IMG/VR virus record: IMGVR_UViG_3300045988_099449 | Span: 1-6,059 of that record | Strand: one strand, 5' to 3' | DNA from: a virus | Length of the DNA: 6,059 nt | Part shown: in pieces, positions 1 through 6,059 of the stretch | Layout of the letters: each line of letters opens with the position of its first letter | Numbering within the stretch: position 1 is the stretch's first letter | Notes under the pieces: generated by a model | Told to the model about the DNA's origin: nothing | The model's input: only the letters and a program-made list of their open reading frames with translations | The model's database searches: none | Program-made: the position numbers and the translations under genes

Positions 1-55
1 AAGAAGAGAACCAACAGGACAAGAAGCAGTATTACCATCACCAGCGTACGAAGAA
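1..55. repeat. Direct terminal redundancy. Window positions 1-55 are identical to about 6005-6059, which marks a circular genome assembled past its own start with a unit length near 6004-6005 bp.
   Basis: The 55-nt string aagaagagaaccaacaggacaagaagcagtattaccatcaccagcgtacgaagaa is found at both window ends. It lies inside the VP1 coding sequence and reads in the same frame at both copies. Confidence 0.9.
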
Positions 56-438
56 CGGGCTACATGTTGGAGGTCGCTTTCAGTAACATAAGGCAAAGAT
101 GAGGGCACAACTACATCGGTCGATATATCAGTAGCGGCCTTAGAAGATTTGCTTTGCTGAACAACAAAAGACGGAAAATCACGATACAACAAACGATAAG
201 GCACAAAGTAAAAGTTATAATATTGCTTCATTCGAGCAAAAGCAGCCGTATTAAGCGGAGCAGTACGCGAAAAAGTAGAAGCATTAACACGAAATTTGTC
301 TCCTGGCAAGCAGTCCTGGAGGAAACAAGGGAGGATTTCACCACATTTAGAGCTAAAAATGCGGCGTTGTGAGAGGTCAAAGGCGTTGCGAGAAACGTGA
401 TTTTTGACTTTAGGAACGAATAGGTTTTGTTTCGTCAT
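1..438 (-). CDS. VP1: Major capsid protein VP1, N-terminal 146 codons. The ATG is at 438-436 and the frame runs off the window start, continuing at the window end into the 4472..5968 ORF. Joined VP1 is about 656 aa.
   Basis: Hand translation of the '-' strand from 438 gives MTKQNLFVPKVKNHVSRNAFDLSQRRIFSSKCGEILPCFLQDCLPGDKFRVNASTFSRTAPLNTAAFARMKQYYNFYFVPYRLLYRDFPSF... with no stop down to position 1. RN-FDLS and LPGD are hallmark N-terminal motifs of Microviridae VP1. An in-frame TAA at 460-462 sits just upstream, so 438 is the first possible start. Reading the terminal repeat in this frame gives RSSYAGDGNTASCPVGSLL on both window edges, which confirms that the two pieces are in the same frame. 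The ORF is missing from the track because it has no stop inside the window. Confidence 0.75.
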   Translation of the reverse strand, partial: MTKQNLFVPKVKNHVSRNAFDLSQRRIFSSKCGEILPCFLQDCLPGDKFRVNASTFSRTAPLNTAAFARMKQYYNFYFVPYRLLYRDFPSFVVQQSKSSKAATDISTDVVVPSSLPYVTESDLQHVARSSYAGDGNTASCPVGSLL

Positions 439-466
439 AAATAATAAAATCTTTAGTTGTTATAAA

Positions 467-1912
467 TCATTCATAATCTTTGAGAGTATACTTTTCTTTG
501 ATTTTTTTGTATTTAGTGAGGTCATAAAGTCTACTTTCGCAATAACCTTTCCAAGCATAAAAAAAGCGTGTAGTACGATAATCAGAAATGCGAGGAAGAA
601 ACACACCACCATCTACAAACCAACTTTCAAGTTGTATGAAATCTTGCGGCTTTGCACCATCATCAAGTAACTTTTGTATGTCATTATGCTGGTTAAGTAA
701 CTTTTCTAACTCCATACGGCCATAAAATTGCCGAGTCTTAAAGAGATGAAAAGTGTGGCAGTTATGAGAATAAAGCCGAGCACTTTGAAGGAACTTTTTA
801 GAAACGAGGACATCATAATAGACGCTGGAATAAATTCTTTCGGGGTCTTGTATGTCCTTAAGTTTCTCGCCAAACGCCTTATAATATTTAGGATAAGGCG
901 CAAAGGAGCAAATATTATATTCATATATTTCATCACTTAGAATTCTTGCGATTTCTGACGAGCGTCTATTAACAAATCCAACCGCGAGATGATAACGGGC
1001 AAGGCAAAGAATATCATCGATGCGGCCAAAGTCGCGACATCTTGGGAAAACGGAAGCCTTAAGACAAGATGGAAAGTTAAAGGATTGGTCAGAGCCATCG
1101 CACGATAAAGAGAACGAGAGAGGGCAGCCACAGACAAACTTGTTGAAGATTGAACTCGCCTTTTTAATAGTCGAGCAGCCGAATTTTTGCGAGTGTCGCG
1201 CGCGGGATTTAACACCGCTTCGGCAATATAATGGTGAAATACATGCAGAGCCCGACATATACGAAGTAAGGTATCGGGAGTTATTTCCGCGGTAATACTT
1301 GGAAACCACAAAACCATACTGCCAACATTCAGCCGAATTTTCGTACAGAAAAGAGCGTGCCTCCTCGGATTTACAGAGAAATATAATGTGAAAGTGGGGA
1401 CGGAACGTTGTCTCCCCATACTCGGCACAATAAAAGTAACGAAAAGAGTATTTTTTTCCAAATTTTCTGCGAAACCGCTCACGCATACGGGCAATGTACT
1501 GTTGAATATCAAAGACTCTAATAAAGGGTATTTGTCCACAAGAGAAATAAGACGGGAAGCGTCGAACATAATTTTTTGAGATTTTACCGAGGAACTTACG
1601 CTCCTCGATGGTGTGAAATTGTTGTGTAAATAACTCACCCGAATCAAGGTCTACAAGATTGCAAATACAACCATCATACAACAAAGTGGCACGAGGAATA
1701 TCACGATTGCGATATGTCAAAGTAACAAACAAACTGCAAGGATTGTCCAACAATTCCAGCGTACCAAGTTGACTTAAAGCATCAGCAGCATGTACGCGGC
1801 AGTAAGCACACTGGCGGCAAGGTACGAAACGGGTTTGACCATCAGCACAAGTAACCTGAATAGGGTGCAAGCAACCAAAAGACACAAGATTTTTAGGGCG
1901 AGTTACAGACAT
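467..1912 (-). CDS. VP4: Replication initiation protein VP4, a rolling-circle HUH endonuclease of the Microviridae gpA family, 481 aa.
   Basis: All three gpA-family motifs are present in order. Motif I is LFVTLTY at about aa 60-67. Motif II (HUH) is RPHFHIIF at about aa 171-178, preceded by the EYGETTF block typical of gokushovirus-like VP4. Motif III is the two-tyrosine catalytic pair Y-LTS-Y at aa 214-218, comparable to the phiX174 gpA Y-VAK-Y. The stop at 467-469 verifies as TGA. A CxxCxxC cluster (VPCRQCAYC) near the N-terminus may bind zinc. The Cys-rich C-terminal ~230 aa have no motif I could recognise. Confidence 0.85.
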   Translation of the reverse strand: MSVTRPKNLVSFGCLHPIQVTCADGQTRFVPCRQCAYCRVHAADALSQLGTLELLDNPCSLFVTLTYRNRDIPRATLLYDGCICNLVDLDSGELFTQQFHTIEERKFLGKISKNYVRRFPSYFSCGQIPFIRVFDIQQYIARMRERFRRKFGKKYSFRYFYCAEYGETTFRPHFHIIFLCKSEEARSFLYENSAECWQYGFVVSKYYRGNNSRYLTSYMSGSACISPLYCRSGVKSRARHSQKFGCSTIKKASSIFNKFVCGCPLSFSLSCDGSDQSFNFPSCLKASVFPRCRDFGRIDDILCLARYHLAVGFVNRRSSEIARILSDEIYEYNICSFAPYPKYYKAFGEKLKDIQDPERIYSSVYYDVLVSKKFLQSARLYSHNCHTFHLFKTRQFYGRMELEKLLNQHNDIQKLLDDGAKPQDFIQLESWFVDGGVFLPRISDYRTTRFFYAWKGYCESRLYDLTKYKKIKEKYTLKDYE

Positions 1913-1966
1913 TTAAAGTAGTTCAATACGAGTTGAAAAGTAAAGTGATTTAGGAGAAAGCATAGG

Positions 1967-2209
1967 CTATGCGTTGTATATCATATCAAGTTGTTTATCA
2001 GCATGGTGTGAAAGAGCATCAATAGAAGCAAGGTTATCAGTATCCATGCGAGGAGAACTCTCAACAATCGAAGAAAGAAGTGCAGAAATAATCGAAAGGG
2101 ATTTAACAGCATTTTCAGAAAGTGTATTATCTTTGTCAGCTAAAAGACGATTTACAAACTTAAAGACAATGTTTAGGACAAAAAGAAAAACTTGTAATTG
2201 TAGTTTCAT
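1967..2209 (-). CDS. Hypothetical 80-aa protein with a hydrophobic N-terminal segment. It sits immediately upstream of VP4 and may be a membrane or lysis protein, or a small accessory protein.
   Basis: The ATG at 2209-2207 is preceded by an AT-rich leader and a TAnnTTTG motif. The N-terminus MKLQLQVFLFVLNIVFKFVNRLL is long enough for one transmembrane helix, and the rest is polar. It is on the same strand and in the same orientation as all other genes, 54 nt upstream of VP4. An antisense '+' ORF (1974..2258) covers the same DNA. The '-' strand is preferred because every other gene is on it. Confidence 0.4.
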   Translation of the reverse strand: MKLQLQVFLFVLNIVFKFVNRLLADKDNTLSENAVKSLSIISALLSSIVESSPRMDTDNLASIDALSHHADKQLDMIYNA

Positions 2210-2236
2210 ATCTTTGAATTTTTATGTTAGACAGCG

Positions 2237-2244
2237 CAAATATA
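2237..2244 (-). promoter_or_regulatory. Possible Bacteroidetes-type sigma-A -7 promoter element (TAnnTTTG) upstream of the 80-aa ORF and VP4.
   Basis: The coding strand reads TATATTTG 28-35 nt upstream of the ORF80 ATG. About 19 nt further upstream is AATTG, a weak match to the -33 TTTG. This is a motif match only. Confidence 0.25.
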
Positions 2245-2342
2245 AGAACACAATTTGAAATTGAAAAGAATGTATGTTGTGTTTAATATCGAAATTTAAT
2301 ATTATTAGTAAACTTAGCAGATTATAACAATTCACAAGTCTA

Positions 2343-2527
2343 TACGGACGCGCTAACGCGCTATTGCATGGCATACGCCTTTGCGAGGACCGGACGCCCT
2401 ACGGGCTAATACGCTAACGCGTGGGTGTCTGATTGGTCACCGGTTACAGAGACAAGACGCGAGGACGCTAACCGCTACGCGGATATGCCTCCGGCATTAA
2501 CGTTACACGGCAAAAAGTAGCGTGTGA
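2343..2527. promoter_or_regulatory. CpG-rich structured non-coding island of about 60% GC in a ~40% GC genome. It carries short direct repeats and hairpins. Candidate roles are replication origin, complementary-strand origin or another cis element. The function is unknown.
   Basis: No ORF is present on either strand. CGCTAACGCG occurs at 2351-2360 and 2412-2421, each able to form a CGC-TAAC-GCG mini-hairpin, with a degenerate third copy ACGCTAACCGCTACGCG at 2466-2482. GCGAGGAC occurs twice (2383-2390 and 2459-2466) and GGACGC three times. A 5-bp hairpin ATGCC-tcc-GGCAT lies at 2485-2497. AT-rich DNA flanks it on both sides within the 518-nt VP2-to-ORF80 intergenic region. Confidence 0.5.
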
Positions 2528-2727
2528 GTTTTGCATATTTGTATCAAGGGGTATGTTTGACGGCAGTCAAATCCGAAGCACGGACAAAACAAAATTAAAC
2601 AATATGGAATTAACACAAACAGACATCAATATATTAGCATGGGGTATAACAATATACTACATAATAATACCCATATCAATACTAATAGTATCAATATGGG
2701 CAATAATTAAACTAATTAACTATATTA

Positions 2728-3963
2728 CTAAAAGCCAAGACGAGAACCAAACTTAAGAGCAGACACAGCGGCTTTACCATATTTTTTGACAAGGTTTTCC
2801 ATTATCCACCAACTACGAGTCGCGCCACCTGCATTATACATTAAAGCATCAGCAGAAGGAAAAATATTAAAGTACTCACGTTTAGTTTTCTCTTTCTGAG
2901 CACGAACTAAAAGGCGCTGTTCATCTTTCAAATCAACATCAGCGAGAGAACCATAAATACGAGGAAACAACAAAGAGCGTTCCGTAGCAGTCTGAGCACG
3001 AGAAAGTCCAGCAGCAGCGTGCGAGGCATCGGCAGAGCCATAGGCAGCAGCAGTATTGGCGGCATAGTTGGCAAGTTGGGCCATTGTTAATTTTTCAAAC
3101 CACGTATTTTGCTTACGCATATTTTCGGCTTGTTCCTTGGTTAACTCACCTTGTGCAACTAATTGGTCAAGACGAGCCTTTTCTGACGCTTCAGCATATT
3201 TAGCAATAGCTTGTTTCTGTTGGTTATCATAGCCCATGCCTTCGGCTTGTAGTTGCATGATTTGCGTATTACTACGCATTTGGGCAAGTTCATTGGCTAC
3301 AATATCCGAAACGCCTTGCGCTTTAAGGGCATAATATTGCGAGTTATAGGCGAACTCATGTGTTTGCGACTGGTAAAGATTAGCATTAGCAGCAACACGC
3401 GAGGGCTCATTAACAAGGTCGTTTTGGTCTTTGATACCTTGTGCAAGAGCAGAGTCGGCAGTACCTTTAGAGCCACGTGCCTCATTCTCCGATTTTTCAA
3501 CAACCGAGGGAGTTAACTTACGTTCGCGGTCAACAGATATTACCTTTAAGGCATTATCCAAAGAAGATGAAAGGCCGCTTATAAAATTGCCAACGGGGTT
3601 AGAATATGCTTCAGCGTAAGCAGGCGCGGAAACATTATTAGGCGTGGCAGACTGCAAAGAAGATGCGGTACCCGAACCGATTTGACCAGAGGAAGCGGAA
3701 TTATACGGATTTATGCCAGCGGCTTCCATACGGGACATTTGAGCAGCAGGGGAATTATATTCATTTTCTCTATTCCATTGCTCAATGTTCCATTGGTTTT
3801 GCTTCTCGGCCATTTGTTCAGACCATTCTTGTTGCTTTTGCAACATAGCATTTTGATGACGTCTATTTTTAGTTGCTTGACGAGCACCGCCAATGGCATT
3901 ACCAATACCACTAAGCAAAGAAGCACCTGCACTAACAGGGTCGAAAGACATATTAAATTCCAT
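2728..3963 (-). CDS. VP2: Minor capsid / DNA pilot protein VP2, about 411 aa starting at MEFNMSFDPVSAG. The track ORF extends upstream to 4143, but that stretch overlaps the 141-aa ORF and the terminator hairpin and is probably not translated.
   Basis: The N-terminus is Gly-rich (GASLLSGIGNAIGGARQ). It is followed by a Gln/Glu/Trp-rich block, QQEWSEQMAEKQNQWNIEQWNRENEYNSPAAQMSRMEAAGINPY, which matches the conserved VP2 region of gokushovirus and Bacteroidetes-type microviruses (...QERMSNTA...AGLNP...). The middle section is long, low-complexity and Ala/Gln-rich with predicted coiled coil. Placement downstream of VP1 is typical. ATGs at 3963 and 3951 both follow the ORF141 stop and the terminator. 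Confidence 0.8.
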   Translation of the reverse strand: MEFNMSFDPVSAGASLLSGIGNAIGGARQATKNRRHQNAMLQKQQEWSEQMAEKQNQWNIEQWNRENEYNSPAAQMSRMEAAGINPYNSASSGQIGSGTASSLQSATPNNVSAPAYAEAYSNPVGNFISGLSSSLDNALKVISVDRERKLTPSVVEKSENEARGSKGTADSALAQGIKDQNDLVNEPSRVAANANLYQSQTHEFAYNSQYYALKAQGVSDIVANELAQMRSNTQIMQLQAEGMGYDNQQKQAIAKYAEASEKARLDQLVAQGELTKEQAENMRKQNTWFEKLTMAQLANYAANTAAAYGSADASHAAAGLSRAQTATERSLLFPRIYGSLADVDLKDEQRLLVRAQKEKTKREYFNIFPSADALMYNAGGATRSWWIMENLVKKYGKAAVSALKFGSRLGF

Positions 3964-3981
3964 AGTAGTAAAATTTAGATG

Positions 3982-4017
3982 AATAAAAAGGCATGCGCCA
4001 CTATAGCAGCGCACGCC
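3982..4017 (-). terminator. Putative rho-independent (intrinsic) terminator between the 141-aa ORF and VP2.
   Basis: On the coding strand the hairpin is GGCGTGCGC-tgctatagtg-GCGCATGCC, a 9-bp GC-rich stem with one mismatch and a 10-nt loop (plus strand 3990-4017). It is immediately followed by CTTTTTATT (plus 3982-3989). It sits 10 nt after the ORF141 stop and about 18 nt before the VP2 ATG. It is the only GC-hairpin plus T-run combination I found in an intergenic gap. Confidence 0.5.
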
Positions 4018-4027
4018 AATACACAAT

Positions 4028-4453
4028 TTAGTTCTTATCCAGCGGAGCAGGAGCAGGAGCGGAGGAAGATTTAAGGTTAGATATGAATTTATTCCAAAAG
4101 TCTTGTTGCTCTTTTTTGTTTTTGTACTTGGACTTAATGTCATCAGCTTTTTCTGTCAGCCAATTAGCAAAATCGTTGACATCGCTTGCCTGTTGCACGT
4201 AGCGATTAGAACATATTTCAAAAAGTTCATCATCTGATAATTGAATATCGTCAGAGGTAGACGGGTTTGTAATAGGTTCAAGGAACTTGGACAACTCGCT
4301 GGGGTCAAGAGCTTGCAACTTTTTCTCAGAAATTACAAAGTCTATATCGCGCACACGCATAGTAACCTCGGGTTCGTCAGATGATAGAGGAGCAAGTTTA
4401 TACGTCTGAATACTGGTAAAGATATTATCTTGTATGTCGTTTTTGTAGTCCAT
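4028..4453 (-). CDS. Hypothetical highly acidic 141-aa protein, possibly an internal scaffolding protein (VP3-like). It sits between VP1 and VP2.
   Basis: A clean ORF begins with ATG 18 nt after the VP1 stop. The protein is rich in D/E (SDDIQLSDDELFEI, DPSELSKFLEP) and ends in APAPAP. Its size and acidity fit microvirus scaffolding proteins such as phiX B/D or gokushovirus VP3. I recognise no diagnostic motif, so the function is inferred from composition and context alone. Confidence 0.55.
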   Translation of the reverse strand: MDYKNDIQDNIFTSIQTYKLAPLSSDEPEVTMRVRDIDFVISEKKLQALDPSELSKFLEPITNPSTSDDIQLSDDELFEICSNRYVQQASDVNDFANWLTEKADDIKSKYKNKKEQQDFWNKFISNLKSSSAPAPAPLDKN

Positions 4454-4471
4454 AACTTTATATATTATAAG

Positions 4472-6059
4472 TTAGTAAGGAAGTCCGAGGCGGTCAAGAT
4501 TACGAATAACTTGGGTATTAAAATCTACAACGTTGTAAAATTGGTCATAACTTACGCCATCATGAAAATAAAATTTGCCGTCAGAACCTTTAGAAATAGA
4601 ACTGTATACACTAAAGATATTGTTCAAAATGCTTGGATATACCTTAAAACTGGAATACTTAGGCTGATTGTAAAAATCAAGGTCACCAAGTAAACCAAAG
4701 CTTACATCACACTTGCCAAGCTCAGAAACAAGAGAAGAGTCAACACCACCCTCAATATTTGGGCCAAGATTAAGAACAAAATCGTGAAGCATACTATTTT
4801 GAGATAGAGAGCAAACAAAATTGGGTTGAGTACCATTTTGTGACTTATTAAAGTCACCTAAAACGATATCGTAATTAGTCTTGTAGTCATAATAACGAGG
4901 GCCATAACCAAGGTTTTTATATCGTGATTTATCACCGAAATCAAAGGGAGGAGTATGGTAAAGGTCACCAGTCAAGAGACGAGGGTCTACACTCTCATAA
5001 CCGAGTCTATCGTATTCGGGCAAAGCAAAATCCGAGAACTGAGTACGGAGACAAGCAGCATCGTAGCCGACAACGCTATAATCAATAAAGGGCAAAGTAT
5101 AAGTTACACCAATTATCAAACCATGCTCACGAACTTCGAAATCAAAATTACCATTGCCTTGAACTATGCCGTTAGCAGCATAATTAGCAATTGAACCCTC
5201 TGAAGCAAGGTTAGTATTAGTAACAGTGTTAATATTAAAATCAGAGGAAAAGCCGCCAATATAATCACAAAGACCACTTTGCAAAGAAGATACATTTACA
5301 TTAAAATGGGCTTCGATTTGGCTTTTATAGTCTGAATTATTTGACAAAGTAACTTCGAGGAATTTTTGCTTAGCTTGAGCAGCACGGAGCGAAAGAATGT
5401 CAAAGGACTGAACAGAACTATTAGAAAGATTTGCAAGGCGCACTTGTGTACGTTCGACTTTTGAAGAAGGACCATCACCAGCAGAAGAAACTACGCCAAG
5501 GTCGTTATAAGTAGGGTCAAAACCAGCAAGTTGACCTTTAGAAGATGGGGCGAGGCTCTGAATATACATATTGGACAAATCGGCAGACTTAACAGACGAA
5601 ACTGCACCGAATTGCGAAGTAGGCACTACACCAAGAAAAGTATCTTTGGTAAAATTGACATAGCGCATATCGAACATATTAGGCTTATGCGATGCAGGAT
5701 ACCAGCCATTTTTATCATTAGTAACGAAAAGAGAAGCAATAGGAATGTTCATATTGCTTTTACCGGCCATGTAATCAACATTATAAGTATTAGCTTGCTC
5801 GTTTTCCCATTGAGAAAAGCGGTAAAAATCATTATAAACTTTTTGATAAGCAAGCAAAGGGAAAAGACTAAGACGTGAGTTATTATTAGCCCAAGTATCA
5901 TCAGAAAGTACAGAACGAGTAGTTTTGTAATAGCCAAGATATTGCAACAACTTACGAGTAGCCATCATACGAGAAGTGCCAACACAAGTAAAAAAATTAC
6001 CGATAAGAAGAGAACCAACAGGACAAGAAGCAGTATTACCATCACCAGCGTACGAAGAA
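4472..6059 (-). CDS. VP1: Major capsid protein VP1 (phiX174 F-like), C-terminal ~520 codons. The ORF stays open upstream of the listed Met at 5968 through to the window end (the last ~55 nt duplicate window positions 1-55) and is continuous with the 1..438 segment across the circular junction.
   Basis: The 498-aa ORF from the track contains the capsid motif FPLLAYQKVYNDFYRFSQWENEQ, which resembles the conserved P-x-x-AY-x-x-I-(W/Y)-N-E-(Y/F)-(Y/F)-R-D-x-N-L block of Microviridae F/VP1 proteins, here partly substituted (V for I, D for E, no R-D...N-L tail). Translating the '-' strand upstream of 5968 gives ...SSYAGDGNTASCPVGSLLIGNFFTCVGTSR-MMATRK... with no stop and no in-frame ATG, TTG or GTG. 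The track does use TTG starts elsewhere, which explains why it began the ORF at 5968. It is the largest ORF in the window, as expected for VP1. Confidence 0.85.
   Translation of the reverse strand, partial: SSYAGDGNTASCPVGSLLIGNFFTCVGTSRMMATRKLLQYLGYYKTTRSVLSDDTWANNNSRLSLFPLLAYQKVYNDFYRFSQWENEQANTYNVDYMAGKSNMNIPIASLFVTNDKNGWYPASHKPNMFDMRYVNFTKDTFLGVVPTSQFGAVSSVKSADLSNMYIQSLAPSSKGQLAGFDPTYNDLGVVSSAGDGPSSKVERTQVRLANLSNSSVQSFDILSLRAAQAKQKFLEVTLSNNSDYKSQIEAHFNVNVSSLQSGLCDYIGGFSSDFNINTVTNTNLASEGSIANYAANGIVQGNGNFDFEVREHGLIIGVTYTLPFIDYSVVGYDAACLRTQFSDFALPEYDRLGYESVDPRLLTGDLYHTPPFDFGDKSRYKNLGYGPRYYDYKTNYDIVLGDFNKSQNGTQPNFVCSLSQNSMLHDFVLNLGPNIEGGVDSSLVSELGKCDVSFGLLGDLDFYNQPKYSSFKVYPSILNNIFSVYSSISKGSDGKFYFHDGVSYDQFYNVVDFNTQVIRNLDRLGLPY
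6005..6059. repeat. Second copy of the terminal redundancy, a duplicate of positions 1-55.
   Basis: Same 55-nt sequence as the window start. The boundary is uncertain by about 1 nt because the header gives 6059 nt while the printed final line counts to 6060. Confidence 0.9.

Follow-up and report, generated by a model that had tools for sequence, protein, structure and literature searches.

A circularly assembled Alpavirinae-like microvirus genome with a dif-like attachment site, from a lineage with integrated relatives assigned to Prevotellamassilia timonensis

For the BMV1-7/Alpavirinae proviruses of Bacteroides and Prevotella, a model of integrase-free integration at dif sites was proposed in 2011 (Krupovic and Forterre, PMC3091885), and the major capsid protein of the subfamily, VP1, has a mean length of ~630 amino acids (aa) (Roux et al. 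2012, PMC3394797). Only one attachment site could be defined for the original Alpavirinae proviruses. Xer-dependent, reversible integration has been shown experimentally for enterobacterial gokushoviruses such as EC6098 (Kirchberger and Ochman 2020, PMC7062461). Here we describe the IMG/VR virus record IMGVR_UViG_3300045988_099449, a stretch of 6,059 nucleotides (nt) that was analyzed over its full length and is referred to below as the window. We consider it very likely that the window holds, in full, the 6,004-nt genome of an Alpavirinae-like microvirus of Prevotellamassilia timonensis, which integrates by way of a dif-like attP site and was captured as a circle, be it the excised or replicative form or perhaps one unit of a tandem array of prophages. 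The window is thereby a new, rather divergent member of a known group, the temperate Alpavirinae-like microviruses with integration at dif-like sites.

A first-pass annotation made from the window alone had implied a plain microvirus, a view that needs revision in that the lineage appears to be temperate, as judged from integrated relatives and not from the exact sequence of the window. The whole gene set of these relatives, whose VP1 proteins are 77-99% identical to that of the window, is inserted between the host genes dnaG and C_GCAxxG_C_C on contigs of 262, 92, 85, 74 and 67 kb, and the attachment site is carried by the non-coding region of the viral genome. A more distant relative (VP1 57% identical) was found at the same dnaG/C_GCAxxG locus in a different host, bringing to two the hosts with prophages at this position. 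The empty host site, attB, is present on eight contigs and is intergenic, with the dnaG and C_GCAxxG genes lying 84 nt apart. Because a GTDB genome scan returned only three distant prophages, with P. timonensis not among them, the host was named from the proteins encoded in the prophage flanks. Exact matches to Prevotellamassilia entries were found for S16 and PFK of the flanks (to P. timonensis in the case of S16), and the clusters of the flanking DnaG and PheT proteins include P. timonensis entries. On these matches we assign the host of the integrated relatives to the human-gut bacterium P. timonensis; our literature searches found no paper linking Prevotellamassilia with Microviridae.

When the rotated window was aligned to the prophages, its 33-nt attP core (2293..2261) was found at both prophage ends. 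Read as its reverse complement, the core has the layout of a dif site, TTGAAAAGAA / TGTATG / TTGTGTTTAAT. All four attachment sequences could be read: attB is GGTAATTCGTTATTAAACATAACATACATTCTTTTCAAAACGAG and the attP of the window is AAATTTCGATATTAAACACAACATACATTCTTTTCAATTTCAAA, while attL joins the host left side to the phage right side and attR joins the phage left side to the host right side. In five distinct prophages, the host variants (T...T) are found in attL and the phage variants (A...C; TT.T in L004) in attR, such that in the right-hand arm of the core the attB variants always occur in attL and the phage variants in attR. This segregation places the crossover in the shared central and left part of the core, within AACATACATTCTTTTCA. 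The attP of the window differs from the phage-side core of its relatives by 0-1 nt.

Over the spacer and XerD arm, the reverse-complemented core (TTTGAAAAGAA-TGTATG-TTATGTTTAAT) is identical at 15 of 17 positions to E. coli dif, which we take to be GGTGCGCATAA-TGTATA-TTATGTTAAAT. Predicted Bacteroidetes dif sites include TTGTTGTATAA-TTTATA-TTATGTTAAAT, and this part of the core is nearly identical to both the E. coli and the predicted Bacteroidetes sites. Searches against Pfam and PHROGs found no integrase or recombinase among the open reading frames (ORFs) of the window. The combination of a dif-like core with the lack of an encoded integrase points to integration that is Xer-mediated and reversible, and attB may be the true dif site of the host. 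In the mechanism that we propose, which is the model put forward for the BMV proviruses (PMC3091885) and proven for enterobacterial gokushoviruses (PMC7062461), the double-stranded form of the genome would recombine through its dif-like attP with the dif-like host site between dnaG and C_GCAxxG, presumably by means of the host Xer recombinases since the virus encodes none, and the resulting prophage would be flanked by two dif-like sites, which would make the reaction reversible. With a free attP, an empty attB, both junctions, a crossover interval and a named host, the lineage provides an unusually clean natural case for the study of Xer-type lysogeny in Bacteroidales.

The two ends of the window share an exact prefix/suffix match of 55 nt (positions 1-55 and 6005-6059) and no overlap beyond this length, which refines the first-pass figure of about 55 nt. 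An exact end match of this length cannot be chance, and its subtraction from 6,059 nt leaves a repeat unit of 6,004 nt, the complete genome of a small single-stranded DNA (ssDNA) phage. The circular topology that had also been claimed is drawn from the assembly, in which a k-mer overlap closes the path, and from the intact attP junction; the claim is consistent with both observations, but a tandem prophage would yield both as well, and the sample behind the circle is a bulk metagenome and not a virome. The same circle was already public in ENA as an unannotated metagenome scaffold (ERZ28571175, BRIT16-1_SAMN02334059 scaffold_5295, L095 in our set), with 0 mismatches and no difference in total length. 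This scaffold has its own 55-nt overlap, is reverse-complemented and is cut at window position 3222 within VP2, such that VP2 and not VP1 is split. Because an identical circle is cut elsewhere, the linearisation point inside VP1, which does split that gene as first described, is arbitrary and without biological meaning.

The printed '+' strand consists of 34.0% A, 26.2% T, 21.0% G and 18.8% C, with 55% purines, which agrees with its earlier description as the A- and purine-rich complement of a T-rich coding strand, and the T-richness of the latter (34% T) is compatible with the positive-sense ssDNA of Microviridae. It is the printed '-' strand that codes, and the rule of the family would make it the packaged strand as well. 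All five ORFs lie on it and make up the previously listed set of VP4 Rep, VP1, an acidic 141-aa protein, VP2 and an 80-aa ORF (Table 1); every coding-strand ORF of at least 60 aa is accounted for, and the 6,004-nt unit fits the Microviridae size class (~4-6.5 kb, genes on one strand). None of the genes of the window has a Shine-Dalgarno sequence, as is usual in Bacteroidota. A repressor gene was sought in the window with Pfam and PHROGs and none was found.

Table 1. Features of the window, with positions in the 6,059-nt stretch
Feature	Position	Strand	Remarks
Terminal redundancy, copy 1	1..55		identical to 6005-6059; assembler overlap on circular path
VP1 major capsid protein, N-terminal 146 codons	1..438	-	start codon 438..436; circularised 656-aa ORF
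VP4 rolling-circle replication initiator, 481 aa	467..1912	-	PF23343, PHROG 942, HUH motifs
16-codon remnant MLSPKSLYFSTRIELL of 98-aa ORF	1913..1963	-	blastn gap versus L004, L006, L008, L020
80-aa ORF, first gene after attP	1967..2209	-	hydrophobic N-terminus; kept in P. timonensis prophages
Promoter-like TATATTTG	2237..2244	-	matches Bacteroidetes -7 motif TAnnTTTG; between attP and 80-aa ORF
attP core, 33 nt, TTCGATATTAAACACAACATACATTCTTTTCAA	2261..2293	-	at both prophage ends and in empty host site
GC-rich island, 177 nt, short GC hairpins	2345..2521	-	~51% GC versus 40% for the genome
Conserved motif CTTGATACAAATATGCAAAACTCACAC, candidate viral-strand origin (Rep nick region)	2522..2548	-	regular expression and profile across alpavirus-like genomes
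Two adjacent hairpins, TCCG-TGCTT-CGGA (2584..2572) and TTTGAC-TGCC-GTCAAA (2571..2556)	2556..2584	-	upstream of CTTG motif
Terminator-like hairpin, 16 bp, 3-nt loop, T-rich tail	2668..2702	-	26 nt after VP2 stop
VP2 DNA pilot protein, 411 aa	2728..3963	-	from M61 of mechanical ORF; PHROG 8689, 31272
141-aa acidic protein, VP3-like position	4028..4453	-	pI 4.48; homologous to post-VP1 ORFs
VP1, C-terminal 510 codons and stop	4472..6004	-	stop 4474..4472
Terminal redundancy, copy 2	6005..6059		exact prefix = suffix

After circularisation, the '-' strand holds a single VP1 ORF of 656 aa that starts at 438, runs across the junction and stops at 4472, as the first-pass annotation had anticipated, and neither an in-frame stop nor a frameshift was found at the junction. 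Linear ORF calling lists VP1 as 5968..4472 (498 aa), which is 158 aa short where a loss of about 160 aa had been estimated, and leaves the N-terminal piece of 146 codons (438..1) unlisted; annotations of this genome made by linear ORF calling will carry a truncated VP1. The joined reading frame is real because a metagenomic protein (P0001) is 99% identical to it across all 656 residues. VP1 matches the Pfam family Phage_F with an E-value of 1.9e-31 and a score of 109.9 (cut-off 25 bits), although the accession is PF02305 and not PF02280 as had been given, and it matches PHROG 514 'major head protein' at 1.9e-59. A profile of its relatives matches the solved capsids PDB 8DES and 9CGM.

For VP4 a match to Phage_GPA (PF05840) had been expected, but this family does not match it even at E<=10; the related Rep family PF23343 (REP_ORF2-G2P) matches instead at 5.8e-15, and PHROG 942 matches at 4.4e-27. 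Its motif I, FVTLTY (residues 62-67), motif II, HFHIIF (from residue 173), and motif III, Y214-LTS-Y218, parallel FDTLTL, HFHAVHF and YVAKY of phiX174 protein A; VP4 of phiMH2K was also compared. By these motifs VP4 is a superfamily-I rolling-circle Rep with three HUH motifs and two tyrosines (YxxxY). VP2 was recovered by the pilot protein profiles PHROG 8689 (1.5e-11) and PHROG 31272 (3.1e-10), both described as 'pilot protein for DNA ejection', and by no Pfam family. Mechanical ORF calling yields a 471-aa VP2 that begins at 4143 and overlaps the 141-aa gene; we replaced this start by 3963 (MEFNMSFDP...), the one used in the public gene call and shared by relatives, which gives a protein of 411 aa. 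The 141-aa protein aligns with unannotated post-VP1 ORFs of GenBank alpavirus-like genomes, with which it shares an SD-x-[DE]L...SRY-x-Q block. It stands in the place of the predicted internal scaffolding protein VP3, a link made by position and by the argument of Krupovic and Forterre; a comparison of the 141-aa family with VP3 of phiMH2K by hhalign was not significant (E 0.16), and a search of the family against the PDB gave no match.

The 80-aa ORF has homologues of 79-80 aa in L004, L006, L020 and L022 and is absent from L023, the relative with VP1 at 57% identity. Downstream of it, the window has undergone an in-frame deletion of ~246 nt that removed 82 of the 98 codons of a basic ORF (pI 10.2) and left MLS plus PKSLYFSTRIELL, and the breakpoints of this deletion share the short repeat CTT(T)C. 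An intact 98-aa ORF lies between the 80-aa ORF and VP4 in every relative sampled and is also present in L023, where the protein is 33% identical to the version of the closer relatives (E 4e-11). Neither the 80-aa nor the 98-aa ORF matches a Pfam or PHROG family, and in GenBank alpavirus-like genomes this region is occupied by small ORFs that are unrelated to them.

The non-coding region comprises 518 nt (2210-2727) and is ~92% identical among relatives, versus 75-90% for coding DNA (75-77% in L020 and L022). As ssDNA, the whole region folds better than shuffled sequences (z -3.4), and across the whole window there was no Rfam match (E<=1) and no ARAGORN tRNA match. We propose that this region would carry the cis functions of the genome, namely the dif-like attP, a candidate viral-strand origin formed by two hairpins and a CTTG...TCACAC element, and a GC-rich island, and that the genes would form one operon that starts at a promoter immediately right of attP, comprises the 80-aa ORF, VP4, VP1, the 141-aa VP3-like protein and VP2, in this order, and ends at a hairpin terminator. 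The putative promoter is TATATTTG, contained in a block, TTATATTTGCGCTG, that is conserved in every attL flank. It matches TAnnTTTG, which we take to be the Bacteroidetes -7 promoter consensus; this motif is not enriched genome-wide (10 found versus 7.2 expected). Relatives have different hairpins at the place of the hairpin at 2702..2668, which fits a terminator.

The two hairpins at 2584..2556 and the adjacent motif CTTGATACAAATATGCAAAACTCACAC form the sole non-coding block that can still be aligned with the relative whose VP1 is 57% identical. Pairing in the hairpins is 100% in 6 sequences, with two compensatory pair changes in hairpin 2. A search of 82 loci for the pattern CTTG N8-14 AAA N0-3 T[GC]ACA gave 25 matches on the coding strand and 0 on the reverse, as compared with 5.15 on both strands of shuffled sequences. 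Four of the 25, from small genomes with VP1 at 23-25% identity, have no preceding hairpin and look like chance; the remaining copies lie in the non-coding region between VP2 and Rep, each preceded by a hairpin of different sequence (non-homologous in distant genomes). A hidden Markov model (HMM) of the motif added Paraprevotella and Prevotella prophages. The block is thus carried on the coding strand, in the VP2-VP4 non-coding region, by genomes with VP1 no more than 35% identical to that of the window, including Hoylesella, Prevotella and Paraprevotella prophages and GenBank isolates. Its conservation, strand and position, and not any resemblance to phiX174, argue that the CTTGATACAAATATGCAAAACTCACAC block is likely the Rep nick region.

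More broadly, we suggest that the segment 2522-2584, consisting of one or two hairpins, 4-9 nt and CTTG-N10-11-(G/C)AAAA(C/G)-TGACAC, could be the viral-strand origin of alpavirus-like microviruses and that in the Prevotellamassilia lineage it could form, together with the island and attP, one cis module for replication and integration, a proposal to which we attach slightly less than even confidence. In our literature searches we met no account of an origin in alpaviruses, and the conserved candidate can be tested directly with purified VP4. An element of hairpin plus CTTG...(G)AAAA(C/G)TGACAC was seen in L001 (3880-3950), L003 (3660-3730), L009 (5760-5830), L010 (14080-14155) and L011 (13910-13980), which are GenBank alpavirus-like genomes and Bacteroidales prophages, and several of the hairpin loops share TCTCTCAC. 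A phiX174-type 30-nt origin was also sought by sequence and rejected, as eight other 30-mers of the window equal or exceed the candidate (best 19/30). The neighboring GC-rich island is nearly invariant among seven distinct relatives and contains mini-hairpins of the GCGTTAGCG type. As RNA it folds no better than shuffled sequences (z -0.23), it holds no conserved ORF, and covariation analysis gave 1 compensatory pair, its near-invariance leaving little variation to test; as a guess, it may be the complementary-strand origin.

A scan of metagenomes with the origin-like motif returned two arrays of clustered regularly interspaced short palindromic repeats (CRISPR), L110 (ERZ1026776 NODE-99, 1-6993) and L108 (ERZ1026864 NODE-24597), both of which contain spacers directed at this microvirus lineage. 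The L110 array has 106 repeats ending ATTGAAAC, and 42 of its 105 spacers match this virus lineage. More than half of the matching spacers (24/42) have the 5'-TTC protospacer-adjacent motif (PAM) of type I-C systems, and both strands are hit (19:15). Among the spacer targets are the origin-like motif, at window 2519-2557, and the attP core, at window 2261-2287; the one spacer on the attP core also has 27 nt in common with attB of the host itself. For a microvirus so heavily targeted by CRISPR, Legionella offers a precedent, and the spacers with a TTC PAM are an independent sign of host association.

Megablast of the window against GenBank phages returned only a 51-nt match of chance size. At the protein level, the best GenBank matches to VP1 are ~35% identical and all belong to ~6-kb gut or faecal microviruses, whose gene order of VP1, a ~140-aa hypothetical protein, pilot protein, variable region and Rep matches that of the window in order and size. 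In IMG/VR, a scan with the single VP1 protein found nothing and a profile scan found nothing closer than ~35%; a large metagenome protein collection contains graded VP1 relatives from 99% down to 36%. By BLASTP, VP1 scores 316-335 bits against Prevotella prophages and 6-kb gut viruses, 77 bits against phiMH2K and 30 bits against phiX174 F. A rough neighbor-joining tree, made without bootstrap and on taxa that do not include BMV1-7, places it among the prophages of Prevotella, Paraprevotella and Hoylesella and the 6-kb gut microviruses and separates it from phiMH2K, SpV4 and phiX174. By tree placement, its 656-aa VP1, its 6-kb genome and its gene order, the window appears to fit the proposed subfamily Alpavirinae, within which the identity ranges of Roux et al. 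would make the lineage a deep branch.

Some members of the lineage depart from the common arrangement. Within the window, the interval 2599-2979, which contains the last ~84 VP2 codons and the terminator hairpin, does not align with L004 and L006 (VP1 98-99% identical) and aligns with L022 (VP1 77% identical), reaching 92% identity in the non-coding part, while the rest of the window resembles L004; such mosaicism suggests recombination between lineages. In L007, extra fragments of the prophage right end (a VP2 piece and a non-coding block) are duplicated at 13796-14022, before the full right end. These may be the remnant of a second insertion and recall the additional dif-like sites reported in BMV4-6. 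The prophage at 7088-13611 of L023/L024, the relative with VP1 at 57% identity in another host species, is likewise found between dnaG and C_GCAxxG but has another core sequence (CTATTAAACATAACACCGATTCAAAA), lacks the GC-rich island and carries at 12699-13216 (-) an opposite-facing 58-aa ribbon-helix-helix (RHH)/CopG-like repressor candidate (PHROG 876, 8e-6) and a 112-aa ORF. The host C_GCAxxG protein P0181 (L004 14158-14640) has also been deposited as 'MAG TPA: hypothetical protein [Microviridae sp.]' (DAR59459.1), and at least one public Microviridae record of the lineage appears to include the host flank of an integrated copy. This is a warning to annotators, in that copies of such prophages with host flanks appear to have been entered under the name 'Microviridae sp.' together with host genes.

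Several observations weigh against the reading of the window as a complete temperate genome that integrates through a dif-like attP. The window's own sequence was not seen integrated, only relatives at 86-91% nucleotide identity; the XerC-side arm of the core is only weakly dif-like; GC skew changes sign ~3.5 kb from attB, but it follows gene orientation and the available flank spans only 16-22 kb; and identity of VP1 to its nearest alpavirus-like counterparts in GenBank and IMG/VR reaches only 30-35%, which makes the subfamily placement loose. The evidence for circularity, an assembly overlap in a bulk metagenome, bears on whether the contig is instead the collapsed repeat unit of at least two tandem prophage copies, with its intact attP being the junction between copies. 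Tandem repeats are collapsed by de Bruijn assemblers into contigs that look circular and end in a k-mer overlap, and contig L021 (12.6 kb, 1-12557) has host flanks at both ends and two complete tandem copies, with attL at 29, an intact attP-type junction at 6261 and attR at 12493; L106 and L109 likewise exceed one genome length. L021 may be either a true tandem lysogen or a loop that the assembler traversed twice, however, and the window carries no attached host sequence. Moreover, Xer-type prophages with two dif sites excise continually, and in the gokushovirus model circles occur in nearly all infected cells. We regard the tandem origin as a real option but rather unlikely, and a tandem prophage and a free circle are not mutually exclusive.

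The missing 98-aa gene likewise speaks against a fully functional genome, as it is intact in every relative examined and reduced to 16 codons in the window, which may be a defective deletion derivative, not viable by itself and maintained with a helper or as no more than a prophage remnant. On the other hand, the deletion is exactly in frame, the start context of VP4 is intact and no core gene is truncated. The 80-aa ORF, for its part, is missing from L023, indicating that the small genes of this slot are not uniformly required, and unrelated small ORFs fill the slot in GenBank alpavirus-like genomes. Weighing these, we consider a defective genome rather unlikely and the deletion variant probably viable. 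That most known Microviridae are lytic, and that the window has neither a repressor nor an integrase gene, could suggest an ordinary, strictly lytic microvirus whose non-coding core resembles the host site incidentally. For the lineage this is already contradicted by at least six independent contigs in which relatives are inserted exactly at the 33-nt core, by matching empty sites and by hybrid attL and attR sites with reciprocal variants, and the near-identity of the window's attP to the phage-side core makes it very improbable for the window too. Related strains do co-occur in gut samples, and the similarity of the window is mosaic, with the VP2 3' end and terminator like L022 and the rest like L004, as might result if the 55-nt overlap and the joined VP1 came from a mis-join of two related genomes; yet no gene is broken, collinearity with the integrated relatives holds at the VP1 junction as well as at the VP2 junction of the public contig, and the full-length agreement of P0001 with VP1 leaves an assembly chimera with hardly any probability. 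The preferred reading thus stays that of an Alpavirinae-like temperate microvirus genome captured as a circle.

Several described systems share parts of this arrangement. At the level of the origin, the window element starts with CTTGATA, as does the phiX174 origin in CAACTTG^ATATTAATAAC (rep_origin 4306, NC_001422), and both have an A/T-rich middle, a comparable end (...CACAC in the window and ...GACCAC in phiX174), a span of ~30 nt, a location on the coding strand and a two-tyrosine Rep. The two agree at only 17 of 30 positions, a level that eight chance 30-mers of the window reach or exceed. The phiX174 origin sits inside the Rep gene, whereas the window element is non-coding and has hairpins upstream. 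At the level of attachment, filamentous Vibrio phages of the VGJphi type, which are integrative mobile elements exploiting Xer recombination (IMEX), also use a single dif-like attP on the double-stranded form to recombine with the host site, yield a prophage between two functional-looking sites and occur in tandem arrays, although they belong to an unrelated family, Inoviridae (via PMC3091885). In contrast to CTXphi, the window shows no inverted dif-like pair that would fold the single strand into attP.

The enterobacterial gokushoviruses come closer, as they carry a dif motif in a non-coding region and integrate next to a dif-type bacterial site without an integrase. They likewise have a host-type site on one side of the prophage and a variable phage-type site on the other, with variation in the spacer and XerD arm (PMC7062461), and both sites are retained as they are here, such that excision is possible. 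They differ in their subfamily, Gokushovirinae, in a genome of ~4.5 kb that encodes VP5 and VP8 and in their proteobacterial host, and Xer dependence was shown for them by experiment while we infer it here. The closest system overall is that of the Alpavirinae and BMV proviruses, with which the window shares a ~6 kb genome, a large VP1 (656 aa in the window), a Rep gene immediately upstream of VP1, a post-VP1 ORF of ~140-150 aa (the predicted VP3 scaffold) followed by VP2, and the absence of homologues of J/VP8, C/VP5, D, G and E. Both lack an integrase, have dif-like att sites flanking the provirus and belong to human-gut Bacteroidales hosts. The VP1 identity of 30-35% to the nearest deposited alpavirus-like sequences falls in the 'between groups' range (Roux et al., PMC3394797), and the duplicated core of BMV1 is 13 bp (PMC3091885) as opposed to 33 nt here, BMV1-7 having been compared by description only. 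Finally, the present lineage differs from the Alpavirinae and BMV proviruses in its host genus, Prevotellamassilia, and in offering an empty site and a free attP together with both junctions.

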